A stretch of DNA of 64,000 nucleotides from Schmidtea nova (Eukaryota), in the NCBI GenBank assembly GCA_044892505.1, contig CM097883.1:216690001-216754000 (forward strand). Reading direction: 5' to 3'. The notes under the pieces are model-generated. The model saw only the letters and a program-made list of their open reading frames with translations. It was not told where the DNA came from and made no database searches. Within the stretch, counting starts at the first letter, position 1. Each line of letters starts with the position of its first letter. The position numbers and the translations under genes were made by a program. Of the stretch, positions 13,499 through 16,885 are shown piece by piece.

Positions 13499-16400
13499 TT
13501 TTTATCTAAAGTATTAGTACTTTTCGCCCGCAATTCAGTGTTGGTGTCTATATACTTTTTGAAAATTGGAGATTGTTTAAATTTAACTGCTCTATTTATC
13601 TTTGTGACTTTAACACCAAGTCCTAAATATAATTGAAGTAATCGCCAATGAATTATATAATTATTTTTAGGGTAATGAGTCAATAGTAATTTTTCTACTT
13701 TTGAACCTCGTGGTTTCATTTTTTCTGCAGCTACCGGGAAATCATCCAAGAAATCATGAATTTCAGCAGGTATTTCCAAATCTACCTCTAAAGTGTAACC
13801 GTAAGATATAGATTCAAGATTTAGATTAATACAGTCATGCAAAATATTATCTAAATTATCAGTCACCCAACTAAATTCTCCACAAGGTAAAGGTTGACTT
13901 AAAGCCCATCCGTAAAGATTATTTATATCGATATACAATAATTCTGTATTTTCATCGGTTTTAACGAAGTGTTTATTTACAAAAGTCAAACCTCCTCGAA
14001 TTCCCCCTTCATAAAAGCTAAACATTTCATTTTCTGTTATTAATTCTATTGGTTCATCTAAAGTCATTAAAGAAGATGACCAAGACATGCCAGGAATACC
14101 GAAGTAATTCAATGGCTCTAATCTATTGTGAGCTATAGATTTGGTTCGAAATTGCTGAATGAAATCAGCCAAAAGAAAGCAATCAAGTTTCAAGTAAGTC
14201 ATCATATAATCTAAAAGAGTAACACAGTTTGTTTCTGTCCAAATCAGTTGTGCCTTTTCATATTCTTCTTTTGAAACACCGTTCCAGATTGGTGGTAACT
14301 CATAAGTATTTTCAAGTACTTCTAAACTTGTAGCAAAGCTATACGGAAAAATACCCTTTTCAGAAACTATAGTTCCATTAAAAACCGAATTTGTCAAAGG
14401 TAAAGATTTCAACGTTTTCACTGCCTTTGCCAAAGAATCATTCACAAACTGGTATGAGTCTATAAATCTTAAACTAATCTTGCCAACATGAGCTATCAAT
14501 GAAATAAATTTTTCAGTTGTAATAGGTATACAACCCAATGACCAATTCTTGAATTTATTTAATCCGTGTTTAAGAATATGGTGCATATCATATCCTTTCA
14601 AGTTATGAAAAACTATTGGTAAAGACTTGTTGATTTTTCTATTAATGTTACACGTTTGACATGCTGCACCTAAATATTTCCCAGTGAAATGGTCGTGGTC
14701 TCTTACAGGATCTACGATATTTTTCATGCAAAGGTAACAAGTGGTACCATTTTTAAATTGATCCTCTTCAATTTCAGTCAATCTATTCATTGGTTTGTTT
14801 CCATTTTTATTGTAATATGGAAGAACTTTTAATAAAGCAATATCTTCAATCGCTTTTAAAAATTCATCTACACAATTTAGTCCAATAAATTGTTGGTAAG
14901 ACTTTGTCCCCTCAAAGTTATTTATTAACAAAAGACCCGCAGAAATAGGCAAGTGTTTCTCATAATATACATCATCCTTTGGTAAAATTGATTCAAAGTC
15001 TGCATAAATAACGAATGGTGGGGTAACAGTTTTTGACCAATCTGTAAATTTTAGCATTTTATTTTCCGGGAAAGTGTATAATGTTGTTCCTAGTTGATTT
15101 TTTCTGCATAAAATCTCATGTTTTTCAAACGATAATTTATTTGGGAAACCATTTAAACATCTACTGCACCATTCGCTTCTTATCTTAGTAGTACAATAAA
15201 TGCTTTGGTGACAATTCATTAAACGTTTTAAATTTATAATAGGTACATAATGATATTTTTCCCCTTCATTTAATAACAATAAATTTATAGTTTTTCCTTC
15301 TGTTACTTTGGACCGATGAATAATATCCAAATGAGGATGCTTTAAAATATAATCATCTTGCTCTTCATAAATTTCATTATTATAACATAGTACATTTATG
15401 ATCAATCCTGGATTCTTTGCCTCGAATTTTTTGATACTATTTAATTTCATGGGCATGTCTGATATATCATATTTGAGCTCTGACAAAACATTTATATATT
15501 TTGATACTCTTTCTCTATCTCTAGATATTAAATCATATTTTAATATAGCTAAAATGCTATATAAAAAACATAAATTATCCTTATTATCAATGTTTAATAT
15601 ACATCTCTTTCCTTTTAATCCTTCAAGAGTTTTTACAATGCTTCTACCTGCTAACCTACTTATATTGGATATCTTAGTTACAACAAAACTTATTTCAGTA
15701 ATACGATTAAGTACCCAACTGCTACCTAATTCCGCAAATGAAGTTATCTTTTCATTCAATTTTTTAATTCCCTCTTCGAAAAATGTCTGTGTCAGAGGTT
15801 TTGCACTATTGGAAATATTGTTTCTTTTAATTTCTCCATCTTTCTCAAATTCAACACAGATACCAAATTGTATCTTCACATAGCCTAGTTCGTTAATTAT
15901 TTCAATTAATTTATTAATTAATGATTGTGGAAGAATAATTTGCTTTATATTTAAATCACTAGTGTTAATTTTTAAAATCCTATGCGATCCATTTAAATCA
16001 CTTTCAATGACAGGGAGAGGTTCTATAACACTTCCTCCAGTTTGATAAAATCCAACGTTCCAAAAACCTTCAATCTCTTCCACCGCTTCAATTAAAATCT
16101 TGTTTTCATCTGCTTCATCCGCTTCCATCGCTTCTAATAAAATCTTGTCTTTAATCTCTTCTTGTAAATTTTGTGATTTCTTGATTATATCTATGTTCAA
16201 TTTAATCTTTTTATTATTTATTGGGTTTTGAGTCAAGTTTGGTCTTTTAAATAATTTTATTTTCTTAGACCTATATTCATTTAAATGATCCTTATGTTCA
16301 TCGTAAAAATTTTTATATGTAAAGGGTTGGGAAGTTTGGCATACGGGACATATATAATAGCGAATTTTATAATAAGAGTGTCCATAATATTGCTCCATTG

Positions 16401-16885
16401 ATCGATGACAATTATCGTTGTGGTCAGTTGAAAAGCAATAATTTGGGTATAAAGCACCTATGAATGTAAAGTAATGTTAAAAATAATAATAATATTATAA
16501 AATTATATATTTACAAATATTTTACTATATTTATTTACTAAATTAATTAAAAGTTAATCAAATTAATTAAAATTAATCAAAACTTACATTGGGCATTCAA
16601 TACCACATCATGTATAACTCCATTATTCACAATATTCTCAAAATTAACTTTCTCAGCTTGTACGGTAGTTTGTCCAGTCATATTTACATCACCTAAAGTA
16701 AAAGTTAAATAATTTACTAATTTATTGATTAAATACCATTTTCTTCCGCATTTTCTAACATCGATTTCCCAATTGAATTATTGATATTACCTAAATTAAT
16801 ACTAAATGATAATAAATTAAAAAATAAATTTACCATTTTCTTTTCCACTTGGGTTTTCGTTCATAAAACTTGTTATCATGTTCAT
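12665..16885 (-). CDS. polB: Protein-primed family B DNA polymerase (pPolB), ~1,330 aa if restored. Predicted exons 16885-16834, 16790-16737, 16692-16588, 16457-12665, with one 1-bp frameshift at the A5 run 13370-13374
   Basis: ExoI VIYADFES, ExoII FHNLKGYD, ExoIII YLKLDC, motif A YIDINNLYGWAL, motif B KLLNNSLYGK, motif C GDTDSF, KCY/KAKG motifs; inserted EndoVII-like CYLC..VRDHDHFTG.Y.GAACQTCN; three phase-1 GT-AG introns keep the frame. Confidence 0.9.

Follow-up and report, generated by a model that had tools for sequence, protein, structure and literature searches.

The core genes of intact vertebrate and nematode Mavericks/Polintons are described as intronless in the accessible text of two reports (PMC8097293; bioRxiv 10.1101/2022.07.12.499685), which agrees with the general view of Polinton core genes taken in a first-pass annotation of the locus studied here. 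The accessible parts of PMC12220804, PMC11296320 and PMC6431247 contain nothing on spliceosomal introns in core genes. Terminal-protein and vOTU domains have been placed at the pPolB N-terminus (PMC11161782, accessible text), and the accessible part of a planarian genome preprint reports a Maverick expansion with no structure given (10.64898/2025.12.11.693146). Spliceosomal introns inside Polinton-like elements are on record from dinoflagellates, whose Maverick/Polinton-like elements carry introners that are transposon-derived and, in the text available, mostly inserted after integration (bioRxiv 10.1101/2025.03.18.643946).

The window, by which we mean the whole 64-kb stretch of DNA analysed here, contains an element that resembles intact Mavericks/Polintons in its pPolB gene, its terminal inverted repeats and its 6-bp target-site duplication. 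It differs from those elements, as far as their accessible descriptions go, in that both pPolB and integrase bear introns in the clade to which it belongs, and in that its own family consists of pPolB alone, present twice, head to head. The endonuclease-VII/HNH-like polymerase insert (PF02945) is shared with pPolB2-class Polintons with an HNH insert (bioRxiv 10.1101/2023.08.22.554363), a likeness drawn from the insert itself; the accessible text on that class describes neither a spliced leader nor a palindrome. In contrast to the dinoflagellate introners as described in the available text, the introns of this clade are fixed, have been inherited through deep family splits (~60% protein identity) and occur in amplifying families. 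A literature search, with bioRxiv supplements, most subscription journals and Repbase outside its coverage, returned no account of spliced pPolB leaders or of polymerase-only palindromes.

The account that we consider probable is that pPolB in this clade is TATA-driven and constitutively spliced, and that the window copy is a deletion form of a palindrome using borrowed integrase. Polintons are found, and judged intact, by their uninterrupted open reading frames (ORFs); such surveys would cut short the polymerase of this clade and count its integrase as defective. That spliceosomal introns have become fixed implies expression in the nucleus by Pol II and a long stay in a single host lineage, and intron-bearing Polintons bear on the question of a viral versus a transposon lifestyle.

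The 5' end of the window pPolB gene

The gene is read on the minus strand. Its first coding exon (16834..16885) is 52 nt long counted from the ATG at 16885 and is followed by intron 1 (16791..16833, 43 nt), exon 2 (16737..16790, 54 nt; three subfamily copies have 60), intron 2 (16693..16736, 44 nt) and exon 3 (16588..16692, 105 nt), the final base of which opens a conserved Cys codon. Intron 3 (16458..16587, 130 nt) lies at a position common to the clade, where its length elsewhere is 87-1111 nt, and leads into exon 4 (12665..16457), the pPolB body with the endonuclease-VII-like insert, which is frameshifted near 13,370 in the window copy. All three introns are phase 1. The first-pass annotation had proposed these three GT-AG segments, and their coordinates, lengths, phase and TAG|GT ends all match the sequence: each starts with GT, ends with TAG and is followed by GT, with the GT donor, YAG/AAG acceptor and host-like size and composition of U2-type introns. 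Their GC content is 0.09-0.14, against 0.30-0.36 in the exons. The size comparison with the host also stands, since the two introns read in the amidophosphoribosyltransferase gene of the window are 56 and 47 nt long. Removal of the three segments joins 52, 54, 105 and 59 nt of exon and reproduces the proposed extension of 90 codons without a stop from ATG 16885; the split codons at introns 1, 2 and 3 are Gly, Gly and Cys.

The TATA box that had been placed about 50 bp upstream is TATATAA at 16936..16942 (minus strand), 51-57 nt ahead of the ATG. It occupies the same position in the subfamilies and in family 2 and, with inverted CCAAT-type pentamers at 17020-17016 and 16977-16973 (minus strand), would form the promoter. 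A rule-based search of 16935-16460, blind to the earlier picks, returned the same three-intron chain with 211 coding nt. When this interval was shuffled 1000 times with dinucleotide composition preserved, 527 shuffles held some chain, a single one had three introns and none reached 211 nt. We regard the three introns as very probably real, and their splicing as a reading of the genomic sequence. Sequencing runs X1-X4 contained no joint at the three introns, yet a host intron was also unspliced in them; the runs are DNA-like and have no bearing on splicing.

A further suggestion, that exons 1 and 2 arose by duplication, fared less evenly. Their shared end is confirmed (the last 8 nt are identical), but the case for duplication of these two exons is weak, with 53 of 500 shuffles reaching their similarity score and 5 of 500 reaching that of the exon-plus-intron units. 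In a sister family duplication is clear: two adjacent exons of L310 have a score that none of 500 shuffles attained.

The last intron, the Cys/His module and complete relatives

Eleven gene starts were compared across seven families and subfamilies, with intron bounds set by eye; polymerases of the families compared are about 60% identical. The last intron is always phase 1, its donor follows a T, and the Cys codon is completed after it. Every intron in the tabulated gene starts is phase 1, and all eight distinct internal exons are multiples of 3. Around this constant junction the leaders vary: a single coding exon precedes an intron of 781-811 nt in families 2 and 4 and of ~1100 nt in family 3 and L305; family 5 has three introns (44, 45 and 692 nt), its exon 2 being similar to that of the window and its exon 3 rich in Met and Pro; and L310 has five introns. 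A pattern combining the last acceptor with the first exon-4 codons gave 5763 matches in the 1.25-Gb genome, against 1 control match. The 1.1-kb pPolB intron of family 3 holds a small conserved gene in antisense orientation (L079:4830-5318, minus strand; L305:1043-1476), which has an apparent short intron of its own and shows a weak relationship to a 167-aa ORF that stands alone in other families.

The window introns lie at the extreme N-terminus of pPolB, ahead of its Cys/His module, and do not split the terminal protein and the polymerase apart. In adenovirus E2B mRNAs the beginnings of pTP and Pol are encoded in a short upstream exon. In the present genes, too, upstream exons joined to the main frame contribute the start codon and the first few residues, and the long intron of family 3 likewise skips a gene on the opposite strand. 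They differ in that the clade has a single gene with a leader of 36-110 codons, and no leader common to several proteins was seen.

All four uninterrupted relatives (P0009, L097, L102 and L103), which come from other sources, carry a Met 2-5 codons ahead of an intact matching Cys; P0009 was scored as uninterrupted only as one called protein, its DNA context not being visible. In L097 and L102 a TATA box lies just upstream of the start. In a quick tree the elements of this host form one clade (7/7, SH-aLRT 99). The simplest history would be an uninterrupted ancestor followed by one intron gain in the lineage of the host's elements, and the host-type intron gain first suggested for the locus is thus supported by conservation across families and by the uninterrupted relatives. 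Precise intron-loss copies were sought among 79 intact-Cys matches (28 in the control); none of the 43 inspected was precise, these being acceptor point changes, chance matches and one rearrangement. A word-based profile search found two proteins and turned up no spliced transcript from a related host. We propose that a founding intron arose in the Cys codon and that others may have followed as symmetric phase 1-1 exons were duplicated or recruited.

Exon 4 opens with the Cys/His module (16246..16457, minus strand), predicted from its ligand pattern to bind zinc, the first half of which precedes the first in-frame ATG (16398). The Cys, His and Cys of this half-module are invariant in 12/12 rows. 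Across the module alignment C, H, C, C and H are invariant, and after the upstream stop the exon-4 frame contains no Met before the one at 16398. Since the Cys-His-Cys codons lie ahead of the first in-frame ATG, translation must begin further upstream. Structure models of the module have pLDDT values of 78-81; fold searches with them gave no significant match, the best being weak ones to C2H2-type regions (Z 3.5, E 3). The Met just past the first half-module is kept in 9/10 rows and could be a second start. That it is the only start, with no splicing and with the upstream pattern being AT-rich promoter sequence, would fit the conservation of Met 16398 and the several database homologs called from the equivalent Met. 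We regard this as highly improbable, as it leaves unexplained the invariant Cys/His codons ahead of that Met, the split Cys, the exons in multiples of 3 in three distant families, and the intron in the integrase motif described below.

Complete elements of the clade carry an ATPase, an rve integrase with a chromodomain, capsid-like genes, an adenain-type protease and pPolB, together with inverted repeats and a 6-bp duplication, and their pPolB genes have 1-5 phase-1 introns. Two of their ORFs we provisionally call capsid-like by their position and motifs; Pfam, NCBIfam and PDB sequence searches with these ORFs gave no match. The rve integrase is itself cut by a GT-AG intron of 40-46 nt in its catalytic-core motif, at the same site in 9/9 genes displayed (for example L264:5630-5673, minus strand, 44 nt, phase 1); loci F2c and P1 gave no row, and the N-terminal query, which was out of frame, served solely to locate the intron site. 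In family 5, 150/150 scored matches to the capsid-like protein are 99-100% identical and 147 lack a stop, and by this near-identity the family is young and recently amplified. That elements with both integrase and polymerase interrupted have amplified is good, if indirect, evidence for splicing.

A TATA-binding-protein-like gene (PF00352, E 8e-17) is also found in complete elements (L077:6557-7078, L264:7379-7858) and was present in 8/10 locus sets checked; a literature search on TBP in Polintons found nothing. Polinton elements are frequently nested within one another, and L077-L078 and L080-L088 include a second, unrelated Polinton lineage with Pox_A32 matches, nested in or beside elements of the clade.

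Conservation and expression of the leader

The first-pass annotation had pointed to splice sites and frame in other family members as a check, and this favours the introns: all six splice sites and the open frame are kept in the diverged subfamily 1b, where L205 differs from the window at 60 of 211 exon sites (11/52 in exon 1, 13/54 in exon 2 and 36/105 in exon 3). Across 29 near-identical copies (98-100%) the 90 codons are free of indels and 2 of 174 splice dinucleotides are altered. In an alignment of 13 copies the exon indels are of 3, 6 and 6 nt, and those of the introns of 1 nt, 2 nt or many; among decayed copies a few lack a splice site, three of them having been picked because of that loss, and one copy is rearranged. 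Because 60 random substitutions leave the frame free of stops in 6-12% of trials, and because exon 3 has a pN/pS of 0.67 between the window and L205, constraint on the leader peptide is weak.

This poor conservation, together with the presence of downstream Mets and with what appears by eye to be a 5'-UTR intron and a single coding exon in families 2, 3 and L305, could indicate that the introns are real but that exons 1 and 2 are largely untranslated, with translation beginning from a Met further along in one of exons 1-3. Such a late start seems improbable to us: every aligned subfamily has this first ATG (16885 in the window) behind the TATA box and in an unchanged context, exon 1 is open from it, and all exon indels are multiples of 3.

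Introns 1 and 2 vary less than the neighbouring exons between the window and L205 (6/87 versus 60/211 differences), and the disparity persists when A/T sites alone are counted (13/194 intronic versus 31/144 exonic differences, p=7e-5). Over 16588-16885 the leader exons are 21-34% diverged from L205, introns 1-3 are 0-14% diverged, and exon 4 only 3%. Fast leader exons beside slow introns could possibly reflect relaxed or diversifying selection, or constrained introns. The third intron of the P element is a regulated splicing switch, and a comparable one might operate here, with the introns staying in place in the majority of cells and being excised solely in those where the element is replicating. 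The conserved introns 1 and 2 would suit such a switch, as would the stop met within 2-5 codons when any one window intron is retained and the dependence of both polymerase and integrase on splicing. We nonetheless think it unlikely, as the introns look like plain short host introns and vary freely in number (1-5) and length (43-1111 nt). Nothing in the sequences speaks for alternative isoforms. Constitutive splicing is the best reading of these patterns, and regulated splicing a possibility. Under constitutive splicing, pPolB would be transcribed from the TATA promoter and processed by the host spliceosome as a matter of course. From the small upstream exons would come the start codon, a rapidly evolving leader and the opening base of the conserved Cys codon.

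Polymerase-only palindromes and the window element

The window element (11994-20860, 8.9 kb) is flanked by a 6-bp target-site duplication (11988..11993, plus strand, and again at 20861-20866). Its left terminal inverted repeat (11994..13498, 1505 bp) includes 72-bp repeats at 12070-12353, and its right one (19356..20860, 1505 bp, two mismatches to the left) is a second-arm remnant containing the 3' end of a second pPolB. Upstream of the gene lie a 144-bp tandem array of 10.5 copies (17429..18944) and a central segment (19019..19357), the axis of the palindrome in fuller copies; at both its ends this segment matches the tip of complete family-5 Polintons. The frameshifted pPolB is the sole Polinton gene of the element: integrase, ATPase and protease are absent from it and from palindrome A, and it has no ORF for a major or minor capsid protein. 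The polymerase assignment comes by way of relatives, as the window protein itself matches only PF02945; proteins of its family are 44-60% identical to PF03175-bearing proteins, and the family 2 protein matches PF03175 at 3e-24. A PDB sequence search with the polymerase alignment gave a best E of 0.26.

Head-to-head pairs account for 28 of the best 40 genomic matches, and the nine such loci read are palindromes of ~13-14 kb with ~0.3 kb at the centre between two arms, each arm comprising an end, pPolB, the promoter and the 144-bp array. The window form lacks most of the right arm, and by this comparison it derives by deletion from a ~14-kb polymerase-only palindrome, carries a frameshift and is not a complete Polinton. 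L304, on another chromosome, shares its deletion junction and frameshift and is 99.4% identical, with 2.3 kb of inverted flank replacing the target duplication. Elements of family 2 have the same palindromic layout, and palindrome centres match terminal tips of complete elements by family, family 1 with family 5 and family 2 with family 3.

At eight loci with two long arms, chosen for being paired, the arms differ at 1-19 of 3401 nt (median 2), against 0.7-1.9% between copies, and stop codons are common to both arms. At three loci the inverted repeat extends 1.3-2.3 kb into flanking DNA, and therefore some of the arm identity arises in place and not during transposition. These inverted flanks, which lack a target duplication, together with one-armed forms that have their own target duplications (L301, L303) and tandemly repeated centres at one locus, might mean that the palindromes do not replicate and transpose as units, but arise and homogenise only in the chromosome, by inverted duplication and arm-to-arm gene conversion, or else reflect errors of assembly. 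We consider this rather unlikely. A 6-bp direct duplication encloses the whole unit at five palindromic loci (window, A, E, G and F2b), the arms are not identical, and the palindromic form is family-specific: among the first 100 acceptor matches listed, paired rows make up 6/7 for family 1, 20/28 for family 4, 4/8 for family 2 and 4/14 for subfamily 1b, against 0/29, 0/5 and 0/3 for families found in complete elements.

The palindromes likely move with integrase borrowed from complete elements. A displaced single strand could fold back on itself at the short inverted ends of the Polinton-ended segment that lies upstream of pPolB; copying from the fold-back would produce a molecule with two arms and one kind of end at both termini, and a helper integrase could insert it. 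Arm-to-arm copying would follow fold-back, with in-place conversion acting as well. Copy-back defective viral genomes have a comparable giant inverted-repeat form, for which panhandle intermediates have been proposed. To our knowledge a model of the Polinton replication step exists but has little direct evidence, and polymerase-only palindromes are a high-copy natural record of element replication. Long inverted repeats around integrated invertron plasmids have likewise been attributed to panhandle intermediates in the accessible text of PMC1864894, and as in the present loci the axis of the giant inverted repeat is occupied by a segment whose ends are of the protein-primed type. Unlike these plasmids, so far as that text describes them, and unlike copy-back genomes, the palindromes are nuclear and high-copy, have their own Polinton ends and target duplications, and code for polymerase in both arms.

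A broader reading, which we offer tentatively and hold at somewhat under even chances, is that these are palindromic satellite Polintons devoid of capsid and integrase: copy-back replicons with a spliced polymerase in both arms, homogenised on replication, swapping 5' exons through the last intron, and riding on a spliceosome-dependent resident lineage with a TATA-binding-protein-like gene.

Several further arrangements were seen among these loci. L301 (7.2 kb) and L303 (5.8 kb) are one-armed polymerase-only elements with 6-bp target duplications, in which a family-5 polymerase body is joined, inside the last intron, to the three exons of the window family; L093 is a comparable chimera of families 2 and 4. 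L334-L336 form a two-armed element whose centre is expanded to about nine tandem units of 1.3-2 kb.

Elsewhere in the window, the host amidophosphoribosyltransferase gene (28906-46615, plus strand) is spread over 18 kb, with its short introns at 29464-29519 and 46305-46351, and mitochondrial initiation factor 2 (51411-53192, plus strand) is a long single open frame. Long ORFs with aspartyl-protease and ankyrin domains occupy 392-5433 (minus strand), with strong strand skew. RING-finger ORFs lie at 7627-8109 and 35072-35635 (minus strand), and a similar one belongs to a small element, nested in L274, that has Polinton-type ends.
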